A DNA stretch of 64,000 nucleotides. It comes from Gnetum montanum. Taxonomy: Eukaryota > Plantae > Gnetophyta. The DNA lies in NCBI GenBank assembly GCA_015680685.1, contig MNCI01001632.1, positions 1 through 64,000 on the forward strand, given 5' to 3'. Below the pieces are notes generated by a model. It searched no databases. It was not told the origin of the DNA and worked only from the letters and a program-made list of their open reading frames with translations. Both the position numbers and the translations under genes were made by a program. Below, piece after piece: positions 5,519-52,138 of the stretch (positions within the stretch are counted from its first letter, which is position 1; every line of letters starts with the position of its first letter).

Positions 5519-5557
<39 letters not shown>
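5519..5557. repeat. (AG)n microsatellite, ~19 units
   Basis: Directly visible; abuts the left LTR of A. Confidence 0.98.
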
Positions 5558-7504: not shown

Positions 7505-7745
7505 ATGATCCCTCTTTGTTGGTGCTTGGAGGATTTACCCAAGAGACACCAATAAATAATACAAAATACCACTACATATTATAACACTATAATGAATACA
7601 AGCTACATGAGAGTTAGGCTATCTAGGTTACCAACATTACTAGTTTAAGGCCATGGCACTAGTTTAAGGTCTTGGTAGGTCATGTTGCTAGTTTAAGGTT
7701 GTAGCAGACCATTGAAAGTAGGATTTCTTGTTAACTATCTATTAG

Positions 7746-10700
7746 CTATATGTAGTATGGATTTAGACAGGAATGGTTAACTAGATTGACTAGCTCATTC
7801 CCATCCATGTTGGCTATTCTAAATTCTCCATTCTTGTAGGCTCTATTGATAAGGAAGGGCCCTTTTAAGTTGGTTCATAATTTTTCCATGTGCTCATGAA
7901 CAGCCTTGAGGACTAGGTCCTCCTCCTTGATCTTATGCATGGTCAAGTCATGGCGATGTTGTTACTTCTACCTCTCTTGATAGTGATCAATGTAAGTAAG
8001 TGCTTACATACACTACTCCTCCACTAAATCCAATATTGTTGTCTACAACTCCTTACTCTACTTGTCATTGATGAAGTTGGTCAAGGCTACTTAGAGTGAT
8101 GAAACATACAATTCAAGATGAAAAATTGTTTTAGAATCATAAACAAGGCTATAAGGGGTCATGCCAATTGTCATGTGATAGGTTTTTTTTATGCCCATAC
8201 TGCATGGACAAGCTACTTCCACTTTCTATTCTTGAGCATCTTCTTGAGCAAGTTGATGATGGCCTTGTTTCTTTCTTCTACTTGTCCATTGGCTTGAGGG
8301 TAGTAAGGGGATGAGAAAGAATGCTTAATGCCTAGGTCATGACAGAAATCCTTGGTTTCTTGGCTACTAAATTGAGGTCCATTTTCTGTAACTATGATCA
8401 TGGGTATGCCAAAATGAGCTATAATGTTATCTAGGATAAATTTGCAAACTTTTTTAGATGTGTTCTTCCTTAGGAAAATAGCCTCAACCCACTTGGTAAA
8501 GTATTCAGTTGTGGTAATGATGAAGCTATGTCCTATGAAAGACCAACATGGTATGGATCTAGTGATATCCAACCACCATTTTTGATATAGCCATGTTATC
8601 TGGGTTGTATGTAACTTAGTTGCTGATACATGTATTAGGTTGCCATATCATTGGCATGTGTAACATCACATAACCTTTTGCAAGCAGTCATTTTTCATAT
8701 GGGGCCAATAGGAGCCTAATCTTCTAATGTTAGTGACCATGGATCTAGGTCATATATGTCCTCCAAAAACACCCTCCTTAACCTCCTCTAAGATTCTTTT
8801 GGCTTTGGTTTTACCTAAGAACTTTATGAGTATGCCATCATAGGATCGTCAACATAATGTGTTATCACCTACAATGACATACTGCTTCAATTACTTGCAT
8901 ATAGCATCCTTCTAAGTAGTAGTTAGGCCTTGTGAGGATTCAACATATGTAAGGTAAAATTTAATATCATCATACCACTCCTTGGGAGGAGTAGTATGAA
9001 TGATGACCACAAAGGTATCATTAGTGTTTTGTGTGATGGAAGTAGTATAGTCCATAGTTAAGATGGGAAACTTGCTAAACACATCTAGCATCACATTAAG
9101 GGCTAATGTTGTAATTACATTAGATATGGTGTTTTTGTTTCTAGGTATGTGTTGGACATTGACATCTATGTATTGTTGTAATAACTACTTCCCTAGGTCA
9201 TAGTAAGGTTGTAAGTGCATAGCTTTGCATGCATAGACTTTAGTTACTTGGTTAACCATGAGTTGTGAATTGCCTTTTATGGCTAGGTGTCTAATTCCTA
9301 GGTCATGAGCTACCATCATCCCTTATTGTGCTATGTTATTTGTACATGGAAATTTGAAATGATAGGAAAATGTTTTATTTCACTAGATGGAAATGTCACA
9401 AGGGTAGTAGTACTAGCCCCATGGGGAGTTGAAGCTCCATCAAAGTTCATGACTACCTCATAACCCTTGGGCACTTAGCTAACTGTGTTAATGTATTCAT
9501 CAAGGAACTCATGGTCTATGGTTGCTTGGTCATCAAAAAGTGAAATTATGAGTTGTATAACTATAGCTTGACCTTTGTTAAGGATTGAGAGATGTAATGA
9601 AGGTTGATCTCTATGGTTATGGCTTTCTGTTAGGCTATGTGGGTACTTTCGTAGACGTTGGTTATTATGGCTCTAAGTATGTTATCCTTACAGATCATGT
9701 TGACTTGGCTTCTAAAGAGGTAGTGTCTCCATTTCTTCAAAGAGAAGGCTAGTACTAGAAAATACTTCTTTATTTCATTATGTTAAGTCTCATTGGCTAC
9801 AAATGCATTGCTAAGGTATTATATAGGCATTTCTAGTCCATCATCATGTTTTTCACAGAGTAGGGAGGCAATGGATGTGTCAAACATGGTGAGATAAATG
9901 TAAAATGGTTTACCCTCTTGTAGAGGATAGAATATCAATAATTATATTAACTCTTTCTTATGGTTTTCAAAGGCCTCTTGTAATTGAGCCTTCTATTCAT
10001 AGTGAACTCCTTTCTTAAGCAAGTGTTGCATGGACTGTAATGTATCCATAACCCTAGCAATAAACCTTTGAATAAATTGTAACCTACCTTGTAATCCATA
10101 AATCTCTTTAAGATTGGTCAGTGTTGCTAATTTGGATATTGATTTAACCTTATTAGGGTCTACATGTATCCCTACTTCAAAGATTACAAATCCAAGCTTC
10201 TTACCTGTCTTGACATTGAAGACACACTTCTTAGAATTAAGCCTAAGCTCATATTTGGGGCACCATTTAAGCACAAGATCTAGGTCATTATTATGGTCAT
10301 CAACTATCTTAGACTTCATGGCTATGTGATCTATGTAATCATTAAGAAAACCTAACATGTAATCACTAAAGATATAGGTCATGACTCTTTGTTATGTTGC
10401 TTTTGTATTCTTAATACCAAAGGGCATCATGGTATAATTAAAAACACCCCATGGGGTCATAAAGGTTGTGCTAAATTGGTGATCTAAGTTGATTCTAATT
10501 TGGTTATATCACGAGAATCCATCTATAAAGGACAACAAGGCATGTCTAGCTATAGTATTAATAAGTTGATTAATACTAGGCAAAGGGAAGTCATCCTTGA
10601 GAGTTTCTTTGATTAGGTTTCCAAAATTAATGCAAATATGGATACTCCTATTTTTCTTAGGGACTACCACTCTATTGGACACCCATTCTATGTAATAGAC

Positions 10701-11241
10701 AAGCCTAATGAAACCTACTTGGTAGAGCTTTGAGATTTTATCATGAACTACCAAGGCCAAATTAGGTCTAATCCTATGCACTTTTTACTTAACTAGTCTA
10801 ATTCTATGATCCAATATGATGTTATGTTGGACTATACATGGATCTAGTCCTACCATATCTTCATATGACTAGTAAAATGCCTTAATGTTATCCTATAAGT
10901 CTTTGGTGATGTCTTGGGCATATTGAGGCTCTAGTGAGGAATTTAGTTTAAGGGTTTTCTCCTCACCACTATGTCATGATAGGAAGCTCAACTAGAGAGG
11001 CTTTGGTTATGTCCCCTACTTCTAAGTTAAGGGTTTTGACTAGGTTTTTAGGCCATTCTAGAGGTTTCTCTATTGAGGCTATGTGGTTTACAAGACTCTT
11101 AGGCCTAATATCTAGGAAATGAGGGTTGATACACCATTTAATATCATCATGAGGTCCATGAAAACACAAAGGAAAATTGATTTTCTCCTAGTTATTCATA
11201 CTTTTATGCTACATATCAACCAAAAGCATATTAACTGACAC
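7746..11241 (-). pseudogene. pol: pol of A (RT-RH-aRH-INT)
   Basis: ORF fragments DDFPLPSINQLI (RT), LNDYIDHIAMKS (decayed YVDD), FDGASTP (aRH, ~9430) and EYFTKWVEA...YYPQANGQVE (INT). Confidence 0.92.
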
Positions 11242-14395: not shown

Positions 14396-17300
14396 ATCAA
14401 GGTTGCTATAATGTTTGAAGTGTCAAAATTAACAAAAATCTTAACATTGATGCAAGTTTTGGCAAAAGTAAAGGCATAAAGTGGGGTCCACAATCAAAAA
14501 ATTTAAAATTTTGAAAACTAGATTTTTTTCCATCCAAAACCAATGTGAACTAGAGTTTCCCCCTTTTTCCTTAATGGACTTATAGTTATGGTGCACTGAA
14601 TTGGTAGTTGGGGTTTCATTTAGGTTTTAAAAGGGCTTTATATGTTAGATTTTGTAATTTTTAATCTTAACTATCATTCTCTAGAAATAGTGAATTGGAG
14701 GAGAGCTCTCATAGAGATTCTTGTGACAGCCACAACTACTCTTCAGCATGGAAGCTTCCCATCTCCCTTGTAGCCAACATAGAACTCTTATTTTTTCCTA
14801 ATTTTCATCTTCCTCAATGTTGAGCCTACCATGGCACCCAAACAAAGAGGAGGAAAGAGAAAAAATCCTATAATTTAGATAATGGATGAGTGTTCAAGGG
14901 AGTTTTCAAAGGTTTGTAGGCTTATCTCTATCCACACCTCATTGTCACTACTCCAAGGTAAGCAATTATACCTATTTTTGCCTTTGTTTTTTGTGATTTT
15001 TCTAGTTTTTTGCTTTCTAGATGTTGAGGTTGTTCTTTTAGATAGACCACTATAGAGGAATTAAAGTGGAATTTTGATGAAATCCCATCCCTTATTTTGG
15101 TTGCCCCCATGCAGATCTATAGTTTTTTTTTATCACTTTAGCCTTTTTACATTAGATTTTGAAAATAGGGCTTGCTATTTTATGTTTTATTTTCTCAAAA
15201 TTTTGGTGTATGTCCATTTTTTTTAGTTCTAGGCCTTAGGATTTGTTAAAATTAAATTTTAACAAAATCCTACCCCATTATTTTGATGTTAATTTAATTG
15301 GTTTTTAATGGTTTTGGATATTTCAACCATTTTAATGGCTATGTGAAATTTAGGCTTTGCAATTTTTGAAGTTTTGCTATGAAAAAGCAAGCAAGGTTGT
15401 GTATTTGTTTCTTGGTGAAATAGCTATACATTTGTAAAATTAAATGTTATGGGTTTGTATCCCTTTGTTTAATCTTTTTATGGTTGTTTTCTCATTTAAT
15501 TTTTCTTTGAAATGACAAAGTTATGGATGTTGTCCTATCGTTGCATAGTTAGGTTGTTTATGCTAATTTTATAATTTCATGTAGATTTATGAAATTTTTA
15601 TAAGAAAATGGTAAAAAGTTTTGCTATTTTTTGGTCATGGTTACATAGGCTTCAGCTTCAGCTTTCGAATGAAGTGAAATCACTCCAATTGGACTTAAAA
15701 TGAGTTTTTATGAATTTTTTAGTATGGCTATGTGAACCAAGGCAAAACACATAGTTGTAGTACATGACCCAAAATAGAAGTTGTTGATATGCTTAATTTT
15801 TCTTTTTTAAAAAGAGTAAAAGTTTTTTCTATTTTAAATAAGTTTATACTATGTTTTCATGGATTTTTCTAAGTTTATCATAGTTTTTCTAAATTTGTGC
15901 ATAGTTTAGATGTTTTTTTTTCCAAATTTATACATTCTTTCCATAATTTAGATGATTTTTCTAAATTTATGCTTGATTTTTCCGAAATTATGCATAATTT
16001 AGATGATTTTTCTAAATTTATGCATAATTTAGACTAAGATATAGTTTTGGCTATAAAGGCTATAAAACATGGTAATAATGCTTTTATGGAATTTCTCAAG
16101 CTAATTTAGATAAACATCTAAGAGCTCTTTCCAAAAGCTAATTTTACCTCTAACTTATGAAGTTTTTTCTAAATTTGTAAAGAAATTCAAATTGTTCAAG
16201 ATTTAAGGATAATGTAAGTTTTCAATAATGTTTTCTTGTTTAATTACTTAGACTAATTTAATAAAACACCTTACAACCTTTTACATAGGCTAATTTCACC
16301 TTCTACTAGCTATTTTGTCTAAATTTTCTAAGTAATACTAATAGGCCACAATGTTTTTACATTGAAAGGTTGTAATAGTGCCTTTTTGTATAATTCCTTA
16401 ATCCAATTTAGATAAATATCTTAGAGCTTTTTACAAAGGCTAATTTCACCTCCAACTAAATATTTTGTCTAAACTTGCTAAGTAACTCCAATTGGTTATA
16501 ATGTTTTTGTTTGGTTTCATACAGGGTCTTCTTGAGGCCTATTATCATCATAGTGGAGTTGGTTGACATTTTTTGCTACGTTGGTCATCCAAATACCAAT
16601 AATCCATCACAACATGCCTTTTGGGAAGCTCTCATTGTAATTTTGGCCTAGGGCAAGGGACTTCCTTGCCTACCTCTTTAGGAACTTTAGTGTGATGTTG
16701 TGGTCACACTTGTTCATGGATGTAGTTAGGGTTGTTGTGGAGACCTTATTGCCTTAAGCATCTAGACTAATTAGTAGGTATATTATTGATAAGCTACCAC
16801 CTAAGATTGCATGGGGACCAGTAGAGGTCATAAGTTCACACTACCTTATGGAGATCTAGTCAATGCTAGAGTATAGTCAATATAATGCTAATAATACTCT
16901 GAAGGTGGCACATAGAGCCCACACATTATTCCAAAATCCACCTAGCACCCTGTATCATCTACAAGGGTAAACATGATTATTGTAATTTTTTTATGATTTT
17001 TGCTTAATTACCTTACTTAACATCATTAATTTAACTTCTTGTAGGTACAAGGTTAATGATCAAGGCTTGATCATTAATGATCAAATTTTGGTAGTGCCTT
17101 AAATTGATTTGGATGAATTCACCAAGAGTTTCCAAATTAGAGCTATTGTGTATCAACAGTTAAGAGGATACTTTAATGAATACACCCATTGGTTTAACCT
17201 TATATACAAAAAGTGTAAGGATGATGCAATGATGCATAGCTGGTGGGTAGATACCAGTAACATAGATCAAACCCTTGTAGCTGGAACCTCTGCACTATAG

Positions 17301-18451
17301 AAGAAAAGTAAAGGTGAACATATAGCTTCTAGTGTTTTATGGTTCTAAGTGTTTTATTGCTTTTCTTGGTTGTTCAAATTATTCATATTACTTCTAACCT
17401 TTGGTTATTACTTTGTAGGACCTTCCACCTTAGCTGATGTAACTATACCACTTTTGCATTTGCGTCATGAGTATACCCTCATCCTAAAGTTTGATGACCT
17501 AACATTAGTATAGGAGTGGCTAAAGGGACAAGTGCCTAGATATGTTCAAGAAAACATCTAGCATGCTAGTTTGCTCAATGTATTTATGGGACCTATTCCT
17601 TCCATTCTTACTACAAAGATGTTGTATGTTATCAACTCCTTTGATGAGGAGGGTGGTAGCTTTAGCACCAACATTAGTAGTGTTATAGTGTGCATTGATG
17701 TAGGTGTTAGCCTCTTTCATGATCTGTTTAGTGTCATTGCTGATGGGACCAAGGTTCCCACCAGGACATTGAGGGAATCAAGTCATCACGAGGAAGTTCT
17801 AAAGTGGCTTGGTGCCAGCACGGGCCACTTTGAAATTTTGATGGATAGCTTTATGACTCCTAATGTAAAGGAATCATATCCTTTGTTTTGTTCTTGTGCA
17901 TTCCCCAAAATGCTATCACAAAAGAAGGTAATTGGCCTAGCACAAGGATGGATCTCTAAGAAGGTCTTAATCAATGACATCAAATTTGGCTACTAGGCTT
18001 TGATAGGAAATCGTTAGACTTTGTGTTGACACCTCTAGAATAATCCATATGCACTTTGCATTTTTCATATGTTATCTAAAGAGGTTTGCAAAGATTCTAG
18101 TGGTGTATAGGAATGGATGATGGGTTTCCAAAGGCCTAAGCCAACTTTCTAGGCCTTGGATAAAGCACACTTATCCAATAGTGTAGGCCTAGAACTCACT
18201 AGAGGAAATGGATAAAACATTATCAATCATCACTAAGAATATTAATGTTAGAAAGTACAAGTTTCTTGATAATACTGATGATGATGAGCCACTTTTTTTT
18301 CCTACTAGTGTTTAGGATGTCAAATGATGGTGCATGAAGGTTGAAGGGATAACTAGAGAGAAATTCAAGAGGCCTATGGAGGAGGCACCCCCAACATCAA
18401 ATCAACGTACCCTAAAGAAGCTTAAGTTTAAGCTTAAGCCATCATAGTAGG

Positions 18452-19990
18452 TGTGACGATGGAAAACGTCGATCGTTGGAAATACCAAATAGAGTTCCAT
18501 GTACATAGTTCCAACCCTAGATCTGTGTGAGGGCCATGCTGAAGAAGATGAATTCGAGGTGCCCTGAACGGTCTTGTTGATCAGACAGGGACTTAATCAA
18601 TAAAATTTTGTAATAACCAGGTGGCAAAATGGTGATTTAAATGAGGAAATATGATATCGTTAATCCCAGAGGTAACGAGAGTGATGTAAATGATTCAAAG
18701 AGATTGCAAAAATCTATATAGATAGGATGCAATAAACTAGATTTAAAAAGTGTGCAATCCCAAGATCTGGGATTTAGCTTATGAACAAAATATGTTGGAT
18801 ACAATGATTATAGGCAGACTTCAGTTTATACGAAGCACGTGCCAAGAACAGGAAAGCTATTTAAAGATAAAACAAGCAAAGGTCGATCTACCTTGTTCTA
18901 GCCAATCTGGGCGCAAGGGAGTCAGACCCGAAACAGAATGTCCGCTAACTAACTATTTCTGATCAAAATTCTTGTCAATCATCTTCAATGTTCTTACAAT
19001 TGTCGATCCCCTTTTTGCTTTCTTATCAATCTTTGCCAAACGTTTTTGACAATTGCCAATGAAAGAAAATTGCTCACGGAGAAAATTTTTCCAATCAAGA
19101 TAATTTTTTTTTTTGCCAACCCCTTTTTGATCCTTGTCAACTGGAGTATTTATAAGGTTAGGGTTAGGAAAAAAATGTGGTTTAGATGATGCATGTCCTG
19201 AACCTACAAAATTCCGTTGACTTGATGTGTTTGTGTTTGAAGCTAGCAGCGCTATGCTACATTACACTCTGAAGCGTAATGTGTCATAAACTACTTTTGC
19301 TGGAGCTTTGGCAACAAACTGTTCTATGATTACACTGTAATACGCTAGAGAGTGTATTGTGATGTATGAACTACTGATGCCTGAATTGTGTTATCTCTAT
19401 TGTTACTTGTATTACGTTGTGTCATGCTACATTACGTTGCATAGAGTAATTCAACGTAAGATAGTGAACCTACAAAAAATTGAAGTGTTGTCGCTGTGCT
19501 TCCCTTGTTTTTGTTCAGTATTTCTAGGGTTTATTATGCTACACTACATAATGTAGTGTAATAGGCCCTTAGCCGAAAAAAGAAAACTTGCTGAGATGTG
19601 CGACATGTTGCAGATCTTTGCTTGAGCCTTGAGATTTTACTGAACCATTGAGATCTTCAAATTTTGCAATCTCCGTTGTTGTGACTAGATGGACTGTCTC
19701 CTTGTATTACGCTGTGTTACGCTACATTACAATGCATTGCATAACATGGCATAATCCGTTAAAAGTTAAAATTTTTGAAGCATAGCTAACTTACAAAGTT
19801 GAAGGCTTGCCATTGTGCACCCCTTGTCTTGTTCTATCCTCTGGAGTCTATTATGTTGCACTGCATAGTGTGGCGTAACAAACCCTTAGCCAAAAAGAGA
19901 ACTTGCTAAGCCACAACTTGTCATAAATCCTTGCCTGAGTTGCAAGATTTTGCTGAACTGTTGAGGCCTCGAAATTTGCATGGTGTTTCA
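18452..19990 (-). repeat. 3' LTR of B (1539 bp)
   Basis: Colinear with 36077-37622; differences are almost all transitions. Confidence 0.96.
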
Positions 19991-21573: not shown

Positions 21574-24500
21574 TTAGATGTGGTACCTCTTTGGATACAT
21601 ATGATTCATTGGGTTCAGGTGTTCGTTGTCGTTGATGTCTGCTAGCCTAAATGCTCCATTTCCATATGCGTTGACAACCAGGAAAGGGCCTTCCCAACTC
21701 ATAGAGAATTTTTTCGCTGGTTCATGGATGGCTTTGAGAACCAAGTCTCCTTTCTTGATTGGTCATTGATGCAAGTTGTGATGATGCTTTTGTTTCTACC
21801 TATCTTGATACCTTTCGATGGTGTTGAGCATCTGGATGCGTTTCACCTCTACTGAGTCTAAATCCACGATCTTAGACTCTTTGTGTTGATTCTCACTTAT
21901 AACCATGGAGAGGACCATCCAAAATGAGGGAATCTATAGTTCCAGGGGCAACCCTGCTTCAGATCCGTAGACTAGGCTGTAGGGTGTCCTATCGGTAGCT
22001 GTTCTGCATGTCATATGATAGGCCCATAGCACATAGAGGATTTTTTCATGCCATCATTTTTTGTTGCTGCTGAGCATCTTCCTGAGTAGATTGATAACCA
22101 CCTTGTTTGTTGCTTCTTCTTGACCATTTGCTTGTAGGTAATAGGATGAGGAAAAAGATTACTTGATACCAAGGTTGTTGCAAAAAGATTTGGTTTTAGT
22201 GCTACTAAATTGTGGCCCATTGTTGGTCACAATAGTCATGGGAAGCCCAAACCTGGCTACTATATTTTCCAAGATAAAATAGCAAACCTATTGAGATGTA
22301 ATCTTTTGTAGGAGAATAGCCTCAACCCACTTCATGGAATACTCGGTGGTGGTGATGATGAAGCTATGTCCTGCGGAAGACTTAGGCGTGATAGGACCTA
22401 TGATGTCTAGTCCCCATTGTTCGAATGGCTAAGTGATCTGTGTAGTATGCAATTCAGTTGGTGACACGTGTATTAGATTTGCGTAACGTTGGCATGTGTT
22501 ACATGTCTTAACCTTGGTGAGGAAATCTCATTCCATGTATGGCCAGTAATACCCTAAGCATCTGATTTTAGCGGCCATGGCTTGTGGGGCTATATGTCCC
22601 CCACATAGTGCTTCATCAACTTTACTAACTATTCATTGTGCTTGGTCATTATTAATGTAGGTTAGCAATACTCCATCAAAAGACTGTCTACAGAGAGTAC
22701 TATCTCCAATGATGACATATTGCCGAGCAATCTTGCAGATTGCATCTTTTTGTGTAGGTGTTAGCTCATGCAATGGTTCGCCATGCAAAAAGTAGGCTTT
22801 AATGTTATCGTACCATTCTAGTGTTCCACCCATGCTTAGAGAAGAAATTTGCGCCACTTGAATGACAGGCTCTGTACATTGCATCATTAAAGTGGGCCAA
22901 GTGACAAACAAATGTGGTGGCATATTTAAGGCCAGTGTGGCTAGTGCATCAGCTATAGCATTTTCATTATGCGACACGTGTTGGACATCAGTTTTCATGA
23001 ATTATTTCAGGAGATCTTTAGCCATATCACAATAGGGATGCAAATGCATAGCTTTGCATGCATAGACCCCTATGATTTGATTAATGATGAGCATTGAATT
23101 ACCTTGGATTTCCAGGTGTTGAACATTGAGTTCCCTGGCTATTAACAATCCCCTGAGGAGCCCCTCGTACTCTGCCACATTGTTCGTACAAGGGAATTCT
23201 AGGCGGTAAGCTAATGGATGAACATCCTCAGGGGAATGCGTAATGATAGCGGCAGCAGTGCCACCTTTGGTAGTCGAAGCTCCATCAAAGTATAACATTG
23301 CTTTGAGGCTTGTCAATATAGGGCTTAAACTACATATTTGTTCATTAGGAAACTCAGGCTCTATTGCGGCTTGATTGTTAATCGGTGATGTTGCAAGCTG
23401 GTCGGCTATCACTTGGCCTTTCATGGAAGATTGGCTAACGTAGTGCAAGTCAAATTCTTCTTTCTAGTAGGCTATCCTATTACTTTCATATAAATTTTTT
23501 GTGATGGCCTGTAGAATGTTTTTTTTACAGATTATATTGACCTGGCTACGGAAAAGATAGTTCCTACATTCCTTGAGTGCAAACACCAATGCTAAACAGT
23601 TACGCTCTACTTCATTGTACCATGTTTTGTATGCAAATAGAGCATGACTTAGGTAGTAGATAGGAACTTCTGACCCATCATCCCTTCTTTGGCACAACAA
23701 CACAGCTATAGACACCTCTAAGTTTGCCAAGTATATGTAGAAAGGCTGATCCCTTTGTGAGGAGAAAATCATTTGCAAATGTAATAGCTCTTTCTTCATA
23801 TTGTCAAATGCACATTGGAAGTTCTTGGTCCATTCGAAGTTAACCCCTTTCTTGAGCAAATGTTGCATAGGGTGTAACTTATCTGTTAATCTTGAGATGA
23901 ACCACCTGATAAATTGCAACCTACCCTATAGCCCATGTAGTTCTTTGAGGTTTGTAGGTGGTGTTAGATTAATGATGGATTTAACCTTATCGGGGTCGAC
24001 TCGAATGCCATTCTCTAATACCACAAACCCCAACATGCACCCATTTTTGACTCCTAATACGCACTTTCTTGGGTTGAGCTATAGGTCATTTTTGATACAT
24101 CGTTAAAGGATTATCTCTAGGTCTTTCGAGTGATCTTCTGACTTCTTAGATTTGATAGCAATGTCATCTACGTAGTCATTCAATCCCTCTAAGAGGTAAT
24201 CACTAAAGATGTAAGTCATGACGCATTGATGGGTTGCTCTAGAGTTTTTTAATCCGAAGGGCATCATGGTGTAACAAAAAGTTCCCCAGGGGATCATGAA
24301 AGTCGTAGTCAGTTGGTGTCCTTGCTTGATACAGATTTGATTATAGCCTGAACACCCATCCATAAAGGATAGTAACACGTGGTCGGCTGTTGGATCGATA
24401 AGTTGGTCAATACTCGGTAATGGAAAGTTTTCTTCAATCGTGGCCTTGTTCAGATCGTGGAAGTCTATACAGATGCATATTCCTCCCATTTTCTTAGAGA

Positions 24501-25044
24501 CAACTATGATGTTCGACACCTAATCTGAATAATCAACTGCATGAATGAAACTAGCCTAATATAGCTTAGTGATTTCATCACACACTGCTAACCCGATTTT
24601 GAGCTTAATCTTCTAGGATTTCTGTTTAAATGCTTTCATATGCGATTCTAAAACTATGTTGTGCTATATTAGCCTTGGGTCTAAACCTGGCATATCTTCG
24701 TATGACCATGCGAACACCGTAATGTTATCTTGTAGCACTCGAGATATATCACTCTGCGTTTGTTGGTCAAGGAGAGAACTAACTTTTAGAGTTTTACTTT
24801 CTCCTTTGTGCGTAACCATAGGGACCTCAGTGAGGGAATCCTCAGTCACATCACCAGCTTCCAGGTCTAGGGTTTGGGCCAAATATTCTAGCTAGTCTGG
24901 AAATACTTCCGATGTTGCAATGGTTATACCACAAAGGGAAGCGTCAGTTCCTATCAATGTGTGATTGAGCTATCTAATACTTTCCCCGTATGGGCCTGTT
25001 AAGGCTAGGGGTGCAAGTAAAGCTACATCCATTTGTGAATTGAC
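21574..25044 (-). pseudogene. pol: pol of B (RT-RH-aRH-INT)
   Basis: YVDD at 24163-24174; FPLPSIDQLID; SGYNQI; RH PIYYLSH; aRH YFDGAS...CTNNVAEYEGL; INT FEQWGLDIIGP and EYSMKWVEA; GPY/F-like WEGPF; stop at 21574-21576. Confidence 0.95.
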
Positions 25045-25062
25045 CTGCAAAAATGCCAAAAA
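25045..25062 (-). promoter_or_regulatory. Putative 3' splice acceptor for the pol exon of B
   Basis: The - strand reads TTTTTGGCATTTTTGCAG|GTC AAT TCA CAA ATG, in frame with RT. Equivalent AG|G sites lie at 11242 (A) and 63789 (D). Confidence 0.75.
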
Positions 25063-25622
25063 TGGAGGTTGTTACATTTTTTTTGTTGACCTATTGAAAT
25101 GATAGAAGGTTTTCTTTTTTTAGTGGTACGTGTTAAAGAGCTGCAAATTTAAGATCCTAGCAGACCGTTACCATATGCGTGATTTGTGAGAAAGCAGTAA
25201 GCCAAATTTCCTAGATGTTAGTGTAAGACTTCTATGCACTATAGTAGGGAGTGTAACGTGGCATGTATAACATGTCGAGACAACTAATTTTTAATTTTTT
25301 GCATATCATAGTTAATGTGACTGGATTACGAGACCATGAGCTACATGTTAGTTTAGGGTCTTTTCGGACCGTAATCTATACAATATCTACAAGATTAATG
25401 TTGCGATCTTCATGCTTCATGTCACATTGACATACCTATGTCTCGAGAAAATTCCACATTGGTCAGGCACGCAATAGTTAGTTTCAACCAATTCATTTAT
25501 AAGTCAGTGATTCATCCTCAAAGTAGACTAGAGATATTGCGAATTTGAATTAGGATATAGCAGAAGGAAAGCAAAAGTAAGGCATGAGCAGAAGATTTTG
25601 CAAAGGTTGTTTAGTCATGACC

Positions 25623-28600
25623 ATGGTACCAAAGATCAAAGGGAAACATGTCAAATTGGCAAAGATTAATAAAGTGTAGGAGAGTTTCCAGTGGGTTGAA
25701 ATGCGGTAGGCTACTCCACTCGCTCGGTAAGTGACATTTTATCGTCCTGCATGATTGTTATTTTTGTTGTTATGGTGTCGCAATTGTACCTATTTCAAAG
25801 ATGTGTATTATGGTGGGCATTGATACCTGGTCACACGGGCTAAGCTATCGTAGTTTGTACTATTACCGCTATCGTTGTTTTTGGAGACAGACCTTGCGTA
25901 CTCGCAAGGGTTAGGACGATCTTGGGCAGTATTGTGCAAACACAATGCATAACTGAAGGAGTCCAGGTACTATACCCTTATGTAGTATGAATAGGATTCC
26001 ATCATCTCACCCATAAATGTTGCATGTTACACTGAGATAATAGGTAGTATTACTTTTATCGCCATTTCCAGGGATAGACCTTGTGCGATTGCAAGGGTTT
26101 GGGTGGTTTTGGTAATGCATTTTCAGCATAACCTACAATTTCCTGGGAGTCAAGGTAATGGAAATTCTAGTGTTATGTAATTAATTTTTGTGCCTCTCTC
26201 CCTTTTTTTTTGTTTTTCTCTTACATCATTAGTATGTCTACATTGCTGTTTCTAATAGAATTCTATTTTATTGTAAAGGATTACGCTAAAGCCTATCCTA
26301 ATCATCTTGGACATTGTGGGCGTTCTGTGTTGTTTACATGTCCCCATGGCCAATGTTCCTCCTCCTCATGCTCGTGTAAAGGTGGAGGCAGTTTGGTTCC
26401 GAAGAGGCACACAAGAGTTTCTGTAGTTTTTGTTACATAATTACAGTGTAATTATTTGGTCGCATTTGCCAGCCGAGACAGTCGCCTCCATTCTGGAGAC
26501 GCTACTAGTTGGATCAACATAGAGCATGTTGATGTTTTTGGTGGATGGCTCAATCGAAACCGTGCAGGTACAAGACCATGAATAGAGTGCCAGGGGTTTG
26601 AGACATTTTTCTTGGATCTAGGATATGCCCAGGTTTAATTGTTATCACGCCTACAACACTCTATTCGTGGCTTGTCATCTTATGACCTACTTCCAAAATC
26701 CACCTGGGATTGTGTATTATGCAAGCGGGTAAGTGCTTCCACGGCGTCATAATACACTAACCATTTTTTTGAATTTGTATCTAATGTAAACAATTGTCTA
26801 CATTCTGTGATGTAGTTTTTTCATCAATAATGATGGTCTCCAGGGTGATATAGATACGTTGTCTATGGCCAAAATGGCCATAAAGGAGTTCACCTCTATT
26901 AGCAATGTACGTGCTGGTGTTATGGGATAACTAGAATTGGAAATCCCACATTACCCTAACTACTATATCAAATTTTTCACCAAGTGCAAAAGGCTCAGAT
27001 GGTTGGATAAGGAGTGGACTTTGGATCGTCCTCTCACTATCATGGACATGTGAGAGAAAATCCCACCGTTTCCTTTGCCTTTTAGATGCGGTAAATTATG
27101 CTATGGTGGTTCATTGTACAATCTTACGAGATGGACACAATGTGTAAAATCATTTTATTTTGCTATATTGTCTAAACCCTTGTTTCATGTTTATAGTTAA
27201 GGAATCACAAGAGATCACGGTTATGGCTTCCAGGCATGAAGCGAGCAGCCTTTGTTTCGTTATGGTGACATAAAGAAAATGCAACATTCGCTCAGCCATA
27301 GTGCAGCCCCAGTTGTCCTAACCAATAACCTATGGGAAGCTAGACTAATGCAGCTATTTTTGGTTGTAACCCCCAACGTCACCGTGGGAAAAATGTTGAC
27401 CCTAGTTAACTCCTTCAGCAAAGAAGCCAAGCATCTTTACATGCGCATGCATAACGTGCATGTAAGTTTTGATATTGACGCTTGACTGTTCACTAACTTT
27501 CTTGGTGTTTCCTTTGATGGCCTTCCAGTAGAAGAAAATTCAATGAGGAGTTCTAAGCACCAAAAGGAGATAGAGGAGTGGCTAGGGGTTAACAAGGAAG
27601 TGAAAGGAATCCCTGCTGATAAAATTGAGCTCGAGGTGGCTCATACCATTTATCCCCTCTTCTGAGCCCACGCCTTCCCCAAGTTGCTTTCCCAGGGGAG
27701 AATCTTTACCATAGAGCAGGCATGGATCATGCAGGAGGTTATGGAGAACGGAACGTGGTATAATTGGGTTAGTTACTTCGCCAAAGGCATGCAGGCTGAA
27801 ATGGTCAAGCTTCAGAAGAAGTTTGAGTACCGCTTCAACGTGCATTTTACCTTCTTTTTAGCTTGCTTTCAGCATTTTTTCGAATTCCTAGTGGTTCAGA
27901 GGGATGGAATCTGGGTGCTACAGGATCATAACCAGATTTCCAAATCTTGGATTTCCTAGATTTTCGACACTACTCGATCATAAGATCCCCCCGAAGGCAT
28001 TGGGGATTCGCTTTCACTTACGACTAAGATTTTGGTGGCACCTCGTACACGAGGCCAGGATAGCATGGGTGGAGCGCTCCCTTCTTTCACCGGTAGTGTG
28101 TCGAGGGGGAAATTCCTTGTAGTAAAAATAGTGGATTCGTCAGTCTAGCAGAAAAAGCCTCGTCTAGCCATGGAGTCCGCTAGTTTGACTGACATAGAGA
28201 GAAAGAGGTTGCAAATTAATTTTCACAAGAATGATCCCCCAACTAGTAAGTAAAGAGATGCATAATTAGTTTATATATTTGTTATGTTGCGTACAGATGT
28301 GGCATCACATAGCATTTGTAAGATTTTTGATTAACTATTTTTTTTAGCAGACAAAAGAAAGAATGTAGAGGAGTTGACCCCTAAAACAGGGGAAATAGTC
28401 ATACGATGTGAAGGAGGGGCCCCAATTTTGAAAAAGAAGGCCCCTGTTAATAATGCAGGTGGCACATAGGTTTCTGTGTGTGAAGAAGAGATGGAAGCAG
28501 AGGACGTCGAAGTCCTTTCAGATGAGCTGGAAAAAAGGGAGCAGCTTGTTGCTGGTAAGTTTAACTTTTCCTTAGAGGGTAGCGTCACATTACGACCATT

Positions 28601-30170
28601 GAGGGTTTTTTTGGATTGAGTTTTGCATTATCGTAATGTCTCAATTGTCCTTTATGTCCATCATACTGTGTCTAACTCATTTTTGTTTGCGTAAAAGGTA
28701 CTTCTAACGCTGGCTTCGTGCCCTTGTCAGCGGCACCCACTCAGCATTGGGATGAGACCCCTGATAAATTTGCCTTTATGGAAGGCATTGCAAAGGATAT
28801 GATGGGCCATCTATAGAGAATCGACCCTGAGATTGGTACGTGAGTGTTATAATGTAGGGATTGTTGACATTATGATATTGTATCTTTTTTTATGTCTCAC
28901 TATTATTTTTATGTTACAGGATCTCGCCTCAGATGGGATCACAAAGAGCCCGTTGACTTGGATATTGCCCCTAAACCCTCATCAGAGCTGACCGAAGTGC
29001 CATGCAGCCTTTACGACGAAATGAGTAAATGTGCGTTACGCTCAACCCACTCTTTATGGGAGTGCCAGAACATCAACGAAGCTCTTTGGAAGAGGTTGTA
29101 GAAGGAAGAAAAGGAGAAGATGTTCCTAATCAGTAGGGTTGAGGACCTGGAGTCTCGAAATAAATTTCTACTAGCTTGAGAGACCAATGATGAGAATTGG
29201 TGGACAGTTGTAATTGACTACACTTGCTATTGGACAGTCATCAGAAACAACATACAAGCTAGTCGTGAACTCATTGAGAAATGGATGCAAATGAATCTCC
29301 TAGCCCAGAAGAACCAAGACTGGAAGGATTATAGCGTGATGGTCCAAGAATGGGGCTAGACACAGAAAGATCATAAGCACGTGTATAAGCGAGAATGTGT
29401 TGCCTACTACCAACATTACAAGGATTCTACTATTAAAGCATGGTCCCTTCAACTATTTCTTGATGTCATCGGTGCTTCTAGAGCATACGAAAAGTTTCAA
29501 GAGCAAGTGACAGTAAGTGCTTCCCCAGAGAGGGAAATAACTTTCCTTGGTCGGGAGACCACTGTCTCTTCCTTCTTTTCTAAACTGCCCTGATGGACTC
29601 CTATGGAGAAGGGAAAGGTTAAGGTTGGAACTGATCTAGGAGATGGCGTTTGGTCTAAGCTTACCGAGGACAAGATCATGCAATGCCTGTGGGTTGGTTT
29701 GGAACAGATTCCTTTCGCAGCTAACGCAAGACCATCATAGGTAAGTTGTAGGCCTATTGCATTCTTGTTATGCGTAGTCTCGATGAAAATACTAATGTGT
29801 GCATCATGTAAAACTATAGGATTGGAACAAGGAGGATCCTCATGAGGATGAGCGTAATGGAGATGATGGTCAAGGAGAAGAGAGTCTTCATGAGGAGGAG
29901 CATAACGAAGATGATGGTCCTCACGAAGAGGATCTCCATGAGGAGGCACATAATGAAGATGATGATCCTCATGAAGAGGATATCCATGAGGAGGCATGTA
30001 ATGAAGATGATCAAACTCGCGGTGAGAAATCCCATGAGGAAGAGCCCTGCAGAGAGGACCCTCGTCATGAAGAGACATCCTACAAAGAAGGTCCTTACAA
30101 GGATGATCTTCATGAGGCAGAGGTGGAGTTGGATGACACAGGTGGAAATGATAGCAAAGGGGATGTGTAG
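25623..30170 (+). pseudogene. Antisense 8-exon accessory gene of B, ~1130 codons: FCP1/NIF-like HAD domain, plant-transposon domain, coiled coil, acidic tail
   Basis: Exons 25623-25726, 26279-26728, 26816-27090, 27197-28245, ~28351-28554, 28698-28835, 28920-29740 and 29820-30170. Donors gtaagt (x5), gtaaat and gtacgt; AG acceptors after T-rich tracts; scattered CAG>TAG stops and a few frameshifts. Confidence 0.85.
29830..30120 (+). repeat. ~15/45-bp coding repeat giving an acidic His-rich tail (GDPHEEAHNEDDDPHEEDIHEE...)
   Basis: Repeated catgagga(g/t) units. Confidence 0.85.
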
Positions 30171-30289: not shown

Positions 30290-30702
30290 TGTTTTAGGCC
30301 ACTGCGGGATATTAGTAGTTTAAGGCCATTTTGGGCCAGTCCATTGTAAGTGTAAAAGGATAAAATAAATAAAAATTGAGTTTCTAGTTTTAGGCCATGG
30401 TGGGCCATAAATAGTTTAAGGCCATTTCAGGCCATATCTTCATAAGCGTAAAGGGGTAAATTACATTTGCCAGTTTTAGGCCGTAGCGGGCCGCAACTAG
30501 TTTAAGGCCATTTTGGGCCAAGCCATCGTAAGCGTAAGAAAAAAAATAAAATTGATAGTTTTAGGCCATAGTGTGCCGTAAATAGTTTAAGGCCATTCCG
30601 GGCTAGTCCATTGTAAGCGTAAAAGGATAAAATAAATAAAAACTGAGTTGCCAATTTTAGGCCGTGGCGGGCCATAAATAGTTTAAGGCCATTTCGGGCT
30701 AG
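30290..30702 (-). repeat. Hairpin-motif array after the gag-pro stop of B (paired motifs in ~90-120-bp higher-order units)
   Basis: AGTTTWAGGCC-N6-GGCC repeated ~10 times. Confidence 0.85.
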
Positions 30703-30806
30703 ATCGTCATAAGCATAATAATGATAATGTAAAAAGAAAGAGCGTAAACTATGTAATAATAAAAAACATGGACTGATACAACATGTCACGCTAACATGTT
30801 AATTTG

Positions 30807-33800
30807 CTAGCTCTGTAGTTGTTTCTTGATCATTTTTAGGTTTGGCGACACGTATGGGCAAGGAGGCTTATTATAGAATTCCTCTACGCTACCATCTTCT
30901 CCTTGGAAGGGTAGTTCAGCCCAAGTCAAGCTTTCATTGGCTACTGTGTTAGCCTATTCAACTATTGGGATAGGAGTTTGATCTTTAGAGAATTCAACCT
31001 CTAACCCTTGTTCCATTTCTACATTGTTAACCGCTTAAGGGATCATCTTATCACCATGGATGATCACTTCCCCTCCCACATAGGACAAATGGATCTCTTG
31101 ATGAATGGGTGATGAGACTACTCTTAATTAAGCTAACCAAGACCTCCCTAAGATTAGGTTGAAGTCGGGCATCTCCTCAATGACGATGAACACTGCATTT
31201 GTGGGGAATTGATCCACTACTACAAAGTTGATGTGTACCATTCCCTTAACTTGCACTCTTGGCCCATTAAATGACTTCAAACATGACATTGTCATGGGAT
31301 TAATCTGGTCAATAAAACCCAGTTTGTCCACTATAGGGAATGGAATGACATTGGCAGCGGCCCCGTCATCTATGTGTACTCTCCGGATTTTGTACTGGCT
31401 GACTTGGATAGTGATGAACATGGATGTTGTTGTCACCTGACCCTTTTCTGGATCATCCTTAATGGATTCTTCATGAAATGTCAGTTGGGGAGATCTTAGT
31501 TGTTCAGCAGTGTGAGGAAACATAATCGAATGGATTGCTTCTTCATCTGCTGGCAACTTTTTGTCCACCAGTATGGACGTTAGCATGCGAACCATGACCT
31601 CATGATGCTTTTAGGATGTCATCAACAAGTCATACAGACTCAGCATTATTTTTCTATTTGAGAGCCTGCTTGACTTGTGTAAAAGAGTCAAGGAGATCAT
31701 GCCCATGATCTAGTTGTTTGTTACCCTTCTCTTCTTTCATTTGTCCCAGGAGACGGATCTCTTGGGGTAGAATAGTTTCTGGTTGAGGATTGTATTTTCT
31801 TGGGCAGGGAGAAGGTGTCCGTATTTGCGTAACATTGCCCTTTTTAGAAGAAGGTGGGGCCAAGGGCACCAAGGCAAGGGATGTAGGCCTAGGGAATCCC
31901 AATGTAGGGTGATCCTTGGCTACCTCAGCTATCATGCACCCTTCTCCTTTCCTATTAGGTTGTGATTGGGGCGTTGACTTAGATGGTTGTCCCTACATAA
32001 TAGGAATAGCTGATGGCTTTGGCACCCTGATGACAAAGGGTACCTTAGGTATGGGTGCGGGTTGGGCTACGGCTTTACCAATAGTAGGCTATGGGACGAT
32101 AGTAGGAGATGGGACTCAAAGGACAAAAGGTTGTTGTTGAACCACACCCATTGATGTTGATGGGTTTGTCGTTTGAGATGAGCAAGGAGATACACATAGG
32201 ACAAAGGGATGCTTTGGCTGTGCTTAACCATCGCCTTCCATACCTACCACATTGATATTGTACCCTACATTATTAGCATTTAACGGGTCTTGGTACATGT
32301 GCATGGATTGGTTTTCAGGATGGATCAGGCTATTGCTGTCTAAGATTAGTTTACCTTGATTGATCATGTATTGAATGTCATCTTTCAACACCCAGTAGTA
32401 ATCCATGTCATGACCACACAGTTGGTGATAGTCATAGAAGCGGTCCAGCCTAAAGTTTTTTGGGACTAAGGGTTCATTCGGTAGGGCCAAGGACGGATTC
32501 TTGAGCAACTCACAATGTCATCTATGGCACTTCAAATCCTCCTTGGATACCTTCTTATGTTGGATGTGGCTAGTTCCCAACAATTTCTTTAGAAGTTCTA
32601 AAGGCTTTATAGGTAGGGCCGCGTATTTTGAATGGTCTTTACGCTCAAAATTAGGGTTCGGCTACAAAGGTGCTTCAAGGGTGAAAGGAGTTTCTGGATC
32701 GATGCTGTTTGAGCTAGTTGTGGGCTCAGCAAGCTCCGTAGATATTTTCTTGTTGTTGTTTTTCTTCTTAGCCCCCTCGGCAACCGCTGTTACTGTCATT
32801 GTCGTAGCTTTTCCTTTGTTCTTACCCTTGTTGTGGGAATTCTTTTAGACCACATACGTTGGATCCTTGCTAGCCTCTGCCATGTCTTGGATGCTCTTAG
32901 CCTGAGTGAAGGCTTGGCTGAGGGAGCGAGGAGCGAGGTAATATAACTTAGACTTAATAAAGTCGTTAACTACCCCCTTGAAAACTACCAACAGATGGCC
33001 CTCCACGATGGGTTCATAGATTTTGTTCAAGGTGGTGCTCCACTGCTATATAAACTTTTGAACTGACTTGAGCGGGTCTTGCTTGACTCCCATGAGCTGG
33101 TCCAGCATGACTTCTGGTTTCATGTTGTACTTGAAACAAGTCACGAACTAAGTTAACAGCTCTTCCAAAGTTGAGATGGAAGCACGCAGGAGTGCTCGAT
33201 ACCAATCTAAAGCTTTACCTGTTAGGGACATAGCAAAGACACAGATGATAGTATGTGGCCATTGTTGCAATAACAATGACTCTGACCTAAAAGTAACTAA
33301 ATGGGTGTTGGGATCGCCTTCCCCATTGTATTTTGTAAAATGGGGAAGTGGCATCCCAAGAGGTAATGACAAAATGGACACTGCCAAGCTAATAGGATCT
33401 TCATGGTAAAAATCCATGACTTGTACTATGTCAGAACCAGCATCCTTGAGGTGTTTAACTTCCTCAGTAAGGGTCTAGATAAGCTAGAAGGATTTATCTA
33501 GACCTGTAGATGAAGAGGTCATTTGTGGAACAGCAGGAGGAGCCACGCTGGGTGGCAGAATAGGGGCGGCAACTTGGCCGATGGGTGATGCTATCGAAAT
33601 TATCCCTGTAGGAGGTGCTACTTGTGGCATCCACCACCTGGTAGGTGGCATGGATGGGGCGATTTCCATTGGCTGTGCCATTGGATATGTTGTTTGCATT
33701 GCTAGGGGCATAGACAATGACCCTGTAGTAGGGTTTAGTGCCTACTGAACTTCGTTTTAATGATGGAGGAGATGGGACATCTATGTAGGATGCACAACGA

Positions 33801-34230
33801 GAGACATGTTTGGAGCCCACCATGCTGTAGTGGGGGGCCCTATCATGTGAGTCAGGATGAATGTAGGTGTTGTATGTAACTACAAAGTAGGTATTGCGTG
33901 TAGATACGATGACATGGGCGTAGGTGTATGGTGAGATAGATTAGCTAACTACACTTGCTAAGGAATGATTTGTAATGGGACACCACCTGAGAGGGTAGTT
34001 GGAGAGAGAAAATGTAGCTGGGACGAGTGCGGTACTTGGTTAGTATTAGACAATGTCAAGGACATGGTGACCATGAACAACAAATTTATGCGAGACGTTG
34101 TGGAGGGAAGGGCCACAACCAAATCAGCATGACTACTTCCCTCAGAGTGGGAATCTAGATCAACCTGCCCATGATGAAGCGCTTCATCATGGAACAACTC
34201 CTCTCATTATTCTGTTGATGTCCTAGCCAT
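30807..34230 (-). pseudogene. gag: gag-pro of B
   Basis: Gag PHFTKYNGEGDPNTHL...FAMSLTGKALDWY; Tat-type Zn motif YDYHQLCGHDMDYYWVLK; protease VHIDDGAAANVIP...FNLILGRSWL. The start and end positions are approximate. Confidence 0.9.
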
Positions 34231-36038: not shown

Positions 36039-36067
36039 GATCAGAGGTTCAGGCCCTCCTTCTAGCG
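36039..36067 (-). promoter_or_regulatory. Primer-binding site of B, tRNA-Asn type, extended
   Basis: The + strand gatcagaggttcaggccctccttctagcg resembles the 3' part of plant tRNA-Asn(GTT) as recalled; it lies 9 nt from the LTR. Confidence 0.8.
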
Positions 36068-36076
36068 TAGGAAAAT

Positions 36077-37622
36077 TGTAACAATGGAAAATGTTGGTCA
36101 CTGGAAATACCGAGCAGAGTTCCATGTACACAGTTCCAACCCTGGATCCGTGCGAGGGCTGTGCTGAAGAAGACAAATCCGAGGTGCACTGAATGGTCTT
36201 TTTGATTAGACAGGGACTTACTTAATCAGTAAAATTTTATAATAACTAGGTGGCAAAATGATGATTTAAATGAGGAAATATGATATCCTTAATCCCAGAG
36301 GTAACGAGAGCGATGTAAACGATTCAAAGATATTGCAAAAATCTATATAGATAGGATGCAATAAACTGAATTTAAAAAGCGTGCAATCCTGAGATCTAGG
36401 ATTTAGCTTATAAAAGAAATATGTTGGATACAATGATTACAGGTGGAATTTGGTTTAAATGAAGTGCATGCTAAGAACAGGAAAGCTATTTAAAGATAAA
36501 ACAAGCAAAGGTCGATTTACCTTATTCTAGCCAATCTGTGCGCAAGGGAGTCACACCCGAAGTAGAATGTCTGCTAAGTAGCTATTTCTGATCAAAATTC
36601 TTGTTAATCACCTTCGATGTTCTTACGATTATCGATCCCCTTTTTTCTTTCTTATAAATCTTTGCCAAAAGTTGTCGACAATTGCCAATGAAAGAAAATT
36701 GCTCACGGAGAAAATTTTGCCAATCGAGAGAAATTTTAAATTTTTTGCCAACCCCCTTTTGATCCTTGTTAACTGGAGTATTTATAAGGTTAGGGTTAGG
36801 AGAAAAATTTTGTTTAGATGACATGTGTCCTGAAACTACAAAATGTCGTTGACTTCATGTGTTTGTGTTTGAAGCTTGCGGCACTACACTGCATTACGCT
36901 CTGAAGCGTAATTTGTCGTAATCTACTTTTGCTAGAGCTTTGGCAACAAACTATTCTATGGTTACACTGTAATACGCTAAAGAGCGTATTGTGACATATG
37001 AACTGTTGATCCCTAAATTCTGTTATCTTTGTTGTTTCTTGTATTACGTTGTGTCATGCTACATTACGTTGCATAGAGTAATTCAACATAAGATAATGAA
37101 CCTACAAAAAATTAAAGTGTTGTCATCATGCTTCCCTTGTAACTTTTCAGTCTTTCTGGGGTTTATTATGCTACACTGCATAATGTAGCGTAATAGGCCC
37201 TTAGCTAAAAAAGGAAAACTTGCTGAGATGTGCAACATGTTGTAGATCTTTGCTTGAGCCTTGAGATTTTTCTAAACCATTGAGGTCTTTAAATTTTGCA
37301 ATCTTCGTTGTTGCGAATAGATGGACTATCTCCTTGTATTATGCTATGTTACGCAACATTACGCTACGTTGCGTAACACGGCAAAATACGCTAAAAGTTA
37401 AAATTTTCGAAACATAGCTAACTTGCAAAGTTGAAGGCTTTCCATTGCGCACCCCTTGTCTTGTTCTATCCTTCAGAGTCTATTACGTTGCACTGCATAG
37501 TGTGGTGTAATAGACCCTTAGCTAAAAAGAGAACTTGCTAAGCCACGACTTGTCACAAATCCTTGCCTGAGTCGCAAGATTTTGCTAAATCGTTGAGGCC
37601 TCAGAATTTGCACAGTGTTTCA
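36077..37622 (-). repeat. 5' LTR of B (1546 bp)
   Basis: Colinear with 18452-19990. Confidence 0.96.
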
Positions 37623-38914
37623 GTAGGTATTCATAGGTATGCTTTATTTAATTTTTAGTATTTCATGTTCTAAATTTTATGGCTACAATATGATTTTATG
37701 TGTTAACTAGTTTTCTATGTGCTATGCTTGTAGATAAGTATCAGGTTATAGTAGCCGAAGCTACTACAGAGGTAGAACAAAGGCATGCAGAAGAGACACT
37801 TCTAAAGCAACCTATGTTTGAAGGACTTGTTAATGCTAGTGTAGATAATCTAAATGTCTTGTTTGATGAACTGGTATTAGGTATCTCTTCCATCATCATC
37901 CTAGAGGAGGAAGAGGAGGAGGAACCAGGGACACCTATGCCTCACTATGTTTTCCATATTTCATTAGCTCTCTTTGGTCATCATCATAACCTTTCAATGA
38001 TTGTTATGCTTACAGTAGTTCCTGAGTCACCAATGGAAGCTTCCATCCCTAAGTTTCATGTGAAACCATGGGTAGAGACTCTAGACAAAGTGGAGTTCCT
38101 ACTTGGGATGGCTAATGAAATCATCAATCAATTGCATTAGGTTGCAGTTAAGATAGGTAAGGATTTTATTTTATGTGCTTTGGTCATAGGCTTTGTTTGC
38201 ATTATGTTCATTTTAGGTTTTGTCTTATGATTGTATTTTATTCTTTATGTAGTATTGTTAGTGGAGTTTGACTCTAGTAGAGAGATGGAGGTAGACTCCT
38301 TGCCTAGACTTGTCTCTTATGTTTTTAGTATACTTATGAAGTTGTATGATACTACCACTGATTTGGAAATGTCATGTGCAAAAGCTTCATGCAAGCTAGA
38401 GAGGTCCAATGAATTTCTATGGAAGGAAATTATGGCTTTAATGGAAAAGGCTTAAAGGAAGGAGGATATGATTTAGTATCTCTAAGACTATAAAGCCTTT
38501 GTAAAAGGCCAAGTTGCTAACTTAAGGGAGTTATGGACCAAGGAGATCAGTTAGGCCCACTATTGGCATGTCATTCAAGACAAAGTAGCAATCCTATAGG
38601 AGATGGTAGAGTGACAAATGTAGATGGGCCTCATCTTCCAAAATGTTGAGGACTAGACTACACTTGAGTTCTGGAGTGGGGCAAGACACAAAAGGTCTAG
38701 AAGCATCAATATAAGGTCAATCATGGGGCCTACCTAAAATGTCTTAAGGAAGATTTGATTGAATGAAACAAGAGAGATCTATTCATTTAGAGGATCTAGG
38801 TAGAGAGTTCTTATCAACTTTCTGAATGTACTCTCAAGGTGAAGCAATCCCCTACTCTTCATATCACCACAATTGTAGGTGAGACCTCTACAACTGATGC
38901 TACTCATGAGCCTC

Positions 38915-39748: not shown

Positions 39749-39920
39749 TATCCCCACAACTAAATGAAAACTCATCCTTGAGTTTCATACAAAATGGTGA
39801 AAGGTATGGGATTATTGAATAACAAGATAATCATTGCATCACAATGGTGTTTTATTGCAATAGAATGATGACACATTACAAGAATCAAAATTAGAAACAA
39901 AAAAAAGGATGATGGAGCCA

Positions 39921-51000: not shown

Positions 51001-51029
51001 CCCTTTATTAGAAATATAATATTAGCAAC

Positions 51030-52128: not shown

Positions 52129-52138
52129 AGAAAAACTC

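Follow-up and report, generated by a model that had tools for sequence, protein, structure and literature searches.

How does an LTR retrotransposon make its Pol when pol lies several kilobases away from gag-pro, and what fills the interval between them? The question is raised by a stretch of 64,000 nucleotides from Gnetum montanum (contig MNCI01001632.1, positions 1 to 64,000; hereafter the window), which self-comparison resolves into a nest of decayed plant Tat-type Ty3/gypsy LTR elements on the - strand. Element B is complete: its two LTRs (36077-37622 and 18452-19990) are 88.6% identical over 1,539 columns, with 137 transitions and 39 transversions, and a 5-bp target duplication, a primer site and a purine tract are all disposed around this one LTR-bounded element. 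Element A spans ~53037 to 5560 and carries both B and a further element, E, nested inside its gag-pro/pol gap; its ends sit in a CT microsatellite, where its target duplication is unreadable. Element D is present only as pol and 211 nt upstream of it, its gag-pro lying outside the window, and is ~74% identical to A, so that the two form one family. The parts of these elements that the argument needs are as follows.

36077..37622, - strand: 5' LTR of B, with a donor-like site at 36520 and a TATA-like box at 36786
36054..36070, - strand: primer-binding-site-like motif of B, which we take to resemble a tRNA-Asn site; the same motif stands behind the 5' LTR of A at ~52112-52128
18452..19990, - strand: 3' LTR of B, with the purine tract in front
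18447-18451 and 37623-37627: target duplication of B
52135..53037, - strand: 5' LTR of A, ends approximate
5560..7504, - strand: 3' LTR of A, ends approximate, with a purine tract in front
30807..34200, - strand: gag-pro of B, decayed, 5' end approximate; its stop (30807-30809) aligns with that of A
48331..51500, - strand: gag-pro of A, decayed, 5' end approximate
21574..25044, - strand: pol of B, with RT, RH, aRH and integrase in one frame with in-frame stops and an ATG at codon 5
7745..11208, - strand: pol of A, decayed and frameshifted
from the acceptor candidates given below to ~59200, - strand: pol of D
30291..30739, unstranded: tandem array of B with a unit of ~85 bp, where gag-pro and the antisense region converge; a related array lies in A at 47746-48120

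We rejected the reading that the gag-pro and pol assigned to A come from different elements, the primer site standing behind the LTR at 52-53 kb and the purine tract before the LTR at 7.5 kb; it is also countered by an antisense region, described below, that is continuous across the target duplication of B.

Several other traits of the nest were recorded. The CT/AG microsatellite flanks A on both sides (5519-5557 and 53038-53064), as if A had inserted into one, apparently within the 3' region of another element, C. Element E (38915-47064) has LTRs that are 83% identical, each with a TATAAA and a donor-like site 56 nt after it, a match to gag (Pfam E 2.4e-5) and another long sense frame, of coiled-coil look and without a pol match; it is likely non-autonomous. 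The pol of D is interrupted by an insertion of ~1.1 kb (60606-61729) that begins with the LTR end motif of the family, and that of C by one of ~0.45 kb (54716-55150). Two long fold-back (inverted) repeats, with arms 89% and 94% identical, occupy 12609-13234 in the gap of A and 49196-50187 inside its gag, and three of the window's four N fall in them. A family motif with the core GGCCTTAAACT recurs at 7659-7698, 11430-11475, 30381-30720, 47746-48120 and 59100-59137, that is, behind gag-pro, in A also before pol, and past the integrase of both A and D; it is possibly a cis signal.

In the pol of B the domains follow one another as RVT_1, RT_RNaseH, RVT_3 (586-704) and integrase, which places an additional RNase H between RH and integrase, and by this RT-RH-aRH-INT order the elements are assigned to the Tat clade of Ty3/gypsy. 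The best pol matches are plant proteins with two RNases H, 35-38% identical over their full length and 47-52% in the RT region. A and B share 55% identity in pol, with third codon positions saturated (0.38), and in the RT tree they form a long branch of their own (support 100) outside the angiosperm Ogre/Retand rows, a position made unsure by the long decayed branches in what is a quick, midpoint-rooted tree of 40 rows that holds no non-Tat outgroup. The nearer rows include a Taxus protein, itself on a long branch. The N-terminus seen in the window was not found in the nearest RT relatives. Several of the nearer relatives (P0125-P0129) have a start Met at about the same spot before RT, a weak sign given that gene callers favour Met, and in P0129 a Phe/Leu/Ser-rich stretch precedes the Met, as a translated T-rich tract would give.

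The gag-pro of B matches Tat gag-pro (tblastn E 3e-12) and contains Retrotrans_gag at ~33016-33240 (Pfam E 2.4e-5) and, weakly, a protease at ~31134-31382 (Pfam E 0.055); the gag-pro tails of A and B align up to a common stop. From this stop to the acceptor at 25045 the gap of B measures 5,762 nt inside a single LTR-bounded element, and that of A ~9.8 kb net after subtraction of nested B and E, of which ~4.6 kb (~11850-16500), including a fold-back repeat, is without a match in B. A sequence-only reading of the window had placed pol 6-10 kb from gag-pro in three elements, and this stands for A and B, two of the three, the gag-pro of D being outside the window. A metagenome search with pol gave 6 loci from 18 stretches, each of 1.3-2.8 kb and thus shorter than the gap.

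That reading had treated the gap as an empty intron. Instead, it holds a conserved coding region on the opposite strand with predicted introns of its own, and we regard this antisense gene as a firmer and more surprising result than the route by which pol is expressed. The homologous regions lie on the + strand at 26279-29570 in B and at 16525-18451 plus 37628-38914 in A, where the region is unbroken across the target duplication of B, and they are colinear, with the same order, place and strand. Their elements are laid out as follows.

26155..26278, + strand: predicted intron of B, 124 nt, 51% T; its acceptor has the same codon and phase as that of A at 16524
26279..28245, + strand: long exon-like segment of B, the first ~150 codons NIF/FCP1-like
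28246..28350, + strand: predicted intron of B, 105 nt, phase 1; counterpart in A at 37637-37733
28351..28554, + strand: middle exon-like segment of B, 204 nt; counterpart in A at 37734-37928 (195 nt)
28555..28697, + strand: predicted intron of B, 143 nt, phase 1; counterpart in A at 37929-38015
28698..30160, + strand: last exon-like segment of B, homologous to 38016-38914 of A
16525..18451, + strand: first part in A, opening at a strong acceptor-like site at 16524, with two frame changes
37628..38914, + strand: second part in A, between nested B and nested E

The relation between the two copies is seen at the protein level (tblastn E 7e-42 and 1e-15), blastn giving no match between their DNA. 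Four aligned blocks (416, 140, 193 and 76 codons) are 27-34% identical, and each outscores all of 200 shuffles, the longest with a score of 337, where its shuffles reach 52 at most and the remaining five frames no more than 72. In every block second codon positions are the most conserved and third positions the least (0.45/0.57/0.35 over the 416-codon block), with third positions at 0.26-0.38, as in pol (0.38). T-rich intron-like segments of 87-143 nt occur at three matching places in A and B, and their phases all fit one reading. Against a gene of this kind count a missing GT at the 5' end of the counterpart at 37929-38015 in A and a stop inside the middle exon of B. The last segment of B ends, after a frame change, in acidic 48-bp repeats. 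On the + strand of B, further donor- or acceptor-like sites at 25727, 25967 and 26071 (within 25700-26155) suggest additional small antisense exons nearer pol. As a source of the antisense region two independent insertions were rejected, since place, strand and order are the same and no ends of their own were seen.

A profile built from the two copies had two matches among 1.84 billion proteins (E 2.9e-6 and 1.9e-4), both of the NIF family and one from the plant Heracleum. The match to this group, the NIF/FCP1-like HAD phosphatases, which in plants include CTD-phosphatase-like proteins, runs without gaps over 143 residues at 29% identity; the Pfam NIF score, 19.8 bits, is below the cut-off of 21.8. 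Where the plant protein has its late Asp pair, both copies have other residues, and the first Asp is present in B. The remaining ~1,000 codons gave no credible match, nor was a second NIF-like repeat found in the later part; Pfam detected neither TRP28 nor PMD in the region, a word-index search with the protein returned none of 4,129 candidates at E 0.01, and AlphaFold on the two-row alignment was unusable (mean pLDDT 29). We consider that the antisense region is likely a spliced accessory gene captured in part from a host gene, and, the acidic motifs being lost, that its product is probably a non-catalytic regulator with a phosphatase fold.

On the sense strand, the sequence-only reading had proposed that pol begins at a phase-0 splice acceptor conserved in three elements, in frame with RT, at the point where coding similarity stops. 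The three AG/GT sites do exist on the - strand (25045 in B, 11242 in A and 63789 in D), and the candidates are now as follows.

25045..25080, - strand: 3' splice-site-like signal of B, a T-rich tract and TGCAG/GT
11242 (as first read) and 11209 (preferred), in the same phase, - strand: acceptor candidates of A
63789 (as first read) and 63756 (preferred), in the same phase, - strand: acceptor candidates of D

The proposal survives best in B, where RT follows in frame; in A and D it is reached only across frameshifts. Under a plant acceptor matrix the site of B ranks first among 3,750 AG sites of the - strand, and those first read in A and D only 97 and 100, ranks that depend on splice matrices of approximate plant frequencies. 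In A and D, in-frame AGs 33 nt downstream score 3.2 and 4.3, against 2.1 and 2.0 at the sites first read, and it is these (11209 and 63756) that align with the acceptor of B; the in-frame stop at that codon in both A and D is accounted for by the preferred AG 33 nt downstream. As to conservation, three sites are present, but with A and D ~74% identical they represent two lineages. Coding similarity does not end at the AG in A and D: their alignment runs on for 41-211 nt upstream (score 93, reached by 0 of 500 shuffles), with more gaps than downstream. Counts for A against D at the three codon positions, from few codons, are 7, 10 and 11 of 11 between the acceptors and 18, 20 and 23 of 31 behind them. 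Over the 52 N-terminal codons behind the acceptor, B and A show modest homology (score reached by 27 of 2,000 shuffles), and an ATG occurs at codon 5 in B and at codon 4 in A and D, for which the chance is ~0.14 per lineage. We thus read a 3' splice site before pol as well supported in B and, 33 nt further down than first read, as moderately supported in A and D, on the strength of these sequence signals. Element B also has a second AG/GTCAA 46 nt upstream, out of phase and of rank 137, and in all three copies a TAGGT(G)CA motif lies 33-46 nt upstream of the preferred acceptor (25091, 11242 and 63789), which could serve as another acceptor or belong to the branch region.

Where would the matching donor be? 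The phase-0 candidate proposed in A, at 48423, is indeed present. We rejected it, since it stands ~30 codons before the gag-pro stop, inside a coding tail conserved with B at the protein level, and has no aligned donor in B. No shared phase-0 donor was found in the last ~170 gag-pro codons of A and B, every aligned junction scoring jointly below 0 even with decayed GT allowed, in a comparison that rests on only two gag-pro ends, both decayed, in which the loss of a former donor is possible. Of the donor-like sites common to the two tails, the best (31005/48541) is of phase 2 and misfits the frame of the acceptor. Non-coding candidates exist: a donor-like site at 36520 in the LTR of B, whose GT is kept in the other B LTR, and one close to pol itself.

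25436..25501, - strand: TATA-like box (25501) and donor-like site (25435) of B, a candidate internal pol promoter with a short leader

The donor-like site at 25435 lies 390 nt upstream of the acceptor and 66 nt behind the TATAAA, and A has a TATAAA at 11609 with a weaker donor-like site 68 nt after it, at 11541. On the - strand 5 of 31 TATAAA have such a follower, two of the five in the LTRs of E, and 4.7% of positions have a TATAAA-donor pair 100-700 nt upstream, figures to be read with a pattern that was chosen after the sites were seen. The flanks of the pairs in B and A show no alignment (798 of 1,000 shuffles score as high), and both elements have ATGs between box and donor-like site. We therefore keep the pair before pol as a lead.

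Two spliced routes to Pol had been put forward, a gag-pro-pol fusion as in Ogre and a leader-spliced subgenomic pol RNA as in foamy viruses. The second fits better, with its AUG at codon 4-5, though the donor may be local and not in an LTR leader; we hold with about even confidence that pol has a separate RNA, spliced and unfused, on which translation starts at an AUG of its own, and that it is not made as part of a Gag-Pro-Pol fusion. Both elements keep the gap between their LTRs, so that a full-length RNA must cross it and serve as template; the gap would be preserved through reverse transcription, and so would the antisense introns, since introns on the opposite strand are not spliced from that RNA. 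The full-length RNA from the 5' LTR would give Gag-Pro and be packaged, while in the pol RNA a non-coding leader would be joined to the acceptor; this leader would be either short and internal or located in the LTR, with a slight preference for an internal one behind the TATA-like box ~400 nt upstream. Entry of Pol into particles would then not depend on a fusion to Gag, as in foamy viruses, and selection for the antisense gene would remove copies that had lost the gap. The case of Candida Tca2, where an internal gag-pol promoter exists and Pol nevertheless comes from the LTR transcript (as presented in PMC2194720), implies that an internal promoter can be real and yet not be the source of Pol. 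Against the unfused route counts the fact that related Ogre elements use fusion splicing (PMC6317226).

That fusion is the strongest rival, possible though rather doubtful: an intron of 5-6 kb with the antisense gene nested in it would be removed from part of the LTR transcripts, so that gag-pro and RT come to share one frame. The split of the domains and the place of aRH are those of Ogre, the acceptor is in phase 0, and the packaging of Pol would be solved by the usual route. We find it unsupported, since the proposed donor falls within a coding stretch that B has too and the comparison of the tails found no phase-0 donor common to both, the best shared site being of phase 2; the AUG retained directly behind the acceptor also speaks against it. 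Less probable still, and in our view unlikely, is an unspliced pol RNA from an internal promoter, the AG and T-rich tract being incidental 5'-UTR sequence. In B, pol and the antisense region point away from each other with ~1.2 kb between them, a natural position for a promoter; an AUG is near the start, the A and D sites are just in the top 3%, and A/D similarity continues upstream, but the site of B is the best of 3,750 acceptors and is in frame where homology starts. That the gap goes back to a passenger inserted long ago and passed on by a shared non-autonomous ancestor, with copies that moved in trans and never expressed pol, is very improbable: every copy is decayed, nesting is rife and the gap of A holds its ~4.6 kb without a match in B, but pol of A and B at 55% identity with saturated third positions, and the same codon pattern in the antisense region, imply that purifying selection acted on both for a long time once the lineages had separated.

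Returning to an unfused pol RNA, we would tentatively go further and picture three transcription units in one element, namely gag-pro from the LTR, a spliced unfused pol, and a multi-exon accessory gene on the opposite strand whose captured CTD-phosphatase-like fold might tune transcription, splicing or silencing of the element. The likeness to Ogre of Pisum and Medicago extends to protease on gag, RT-RH-aRH-INT in a second frame, an acceptor between the two, a 5-bp target duplication and large size. A tRNA-Arg primer site is a further mark of Ogre. The gag-pro/pol gap of Ogre averages 274 bp and has been demonstrated in pea and Medicago to be an intron, and the element's extra ORFs, 5' of gag or 3' of pol, carry a plant mobile domain, according to the sections of PMC6317226 on these elements; here the gap is at least 5.8 kb and contains a coding antisense region, no fusion donor is shared, and the RT of A and B falls outside the angiosperm Ogre/Retand rows. 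The RT-RH-aRH-INT order, which makes a non-flowering host likely, is known from hornworts, clubmosses, ferns and several gymnosperms, in the structure 1 retrovirus-like Tat elements of non-flowering plants (clusters D, J and K), a likeness by domain order only, as the relevant text of PMC10508981 and PMC13468544 classifies by RT and aRH position; the main text of PMC13468544 contains no intron, splicing or antisense, and that of PMC10508981 neither intron nor splicing. In gymnosperm TatII and TatIII, aRH stands before RT (II) or after integrase (III), whereas here it lies between RH and integrase.

The antisense ORFs of Retand, Grande and RIRE2, and Boty of fungi, offer the nearest parallel, with a family-wide antisense gene, tandem arrays and a long internal region, and in Grande a promoter of the gene's own. 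According to the parts of PMC11963269 and PMC7264820 that describe them, these genes lie between pol and the 3' LTR, mostly code for TRP28 and lack a recognised homologue in the host; in the window the antisense gene sits in the interval from gag-pro to pol, its N-terminal domain is NIF-like and resembles a host protein, and the stretch behind pol in B is 1.6 kb long. Ogre-related elements of orchids that captured an AlkB demethylase are likewise Tat-type with a host-derived enzyme domain as an extra gene; their domain is another one, shown to be active, in an element with a single gag-pol frame (PMC9289625, in the text on these elements), while the acidic catalytic motifs here appear lost. 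Foamy viruses also make Pol from a spliced RNA without Gag, and the sequence signals in the window fit such a model; the comparison is a functional analogy only, as foamy Pol includes protease, the acceptor is inside gag and no antisense gene lies between, in the account given in PMC3705302. An unfused Pol would need foamy-like packaging. Elsewhere, in the pertinent text of PMC4408406, PMC11963269, PMC7264820, PMC12786077 and PMC9289625, extra genes stand before gag or behind pol, or their position in this respect is not given. In the open-access literature covered, we found neither an antisense gene between gag-pro and pol nor the capture of an FCP1-like domain by a gypsy element, of which Additional files 1 and 3 of PMC6317226 could hold examples. 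The layout is a variant of the Tat retrotransposon that we did not find described.

The relevant text of PMC6317226 and PMC7264820 lists additional genes in LTR elements of plants solely upstream of gag or downstream of pol, and gives no known origin for those in antisense. An antisense gene between gag-pro and pol that is under selection, has introns and carries a domain recognisable from the host would offer an origin that can be traced and a function that can be tested. Should Pol be unfused, plants would have a counterpart to foamy viruses, and one would have to ask by what route Pol gets into the particle. In practice, annotation would wrongly show such elements as broken or nested, and would assign their antisense exons to the host.
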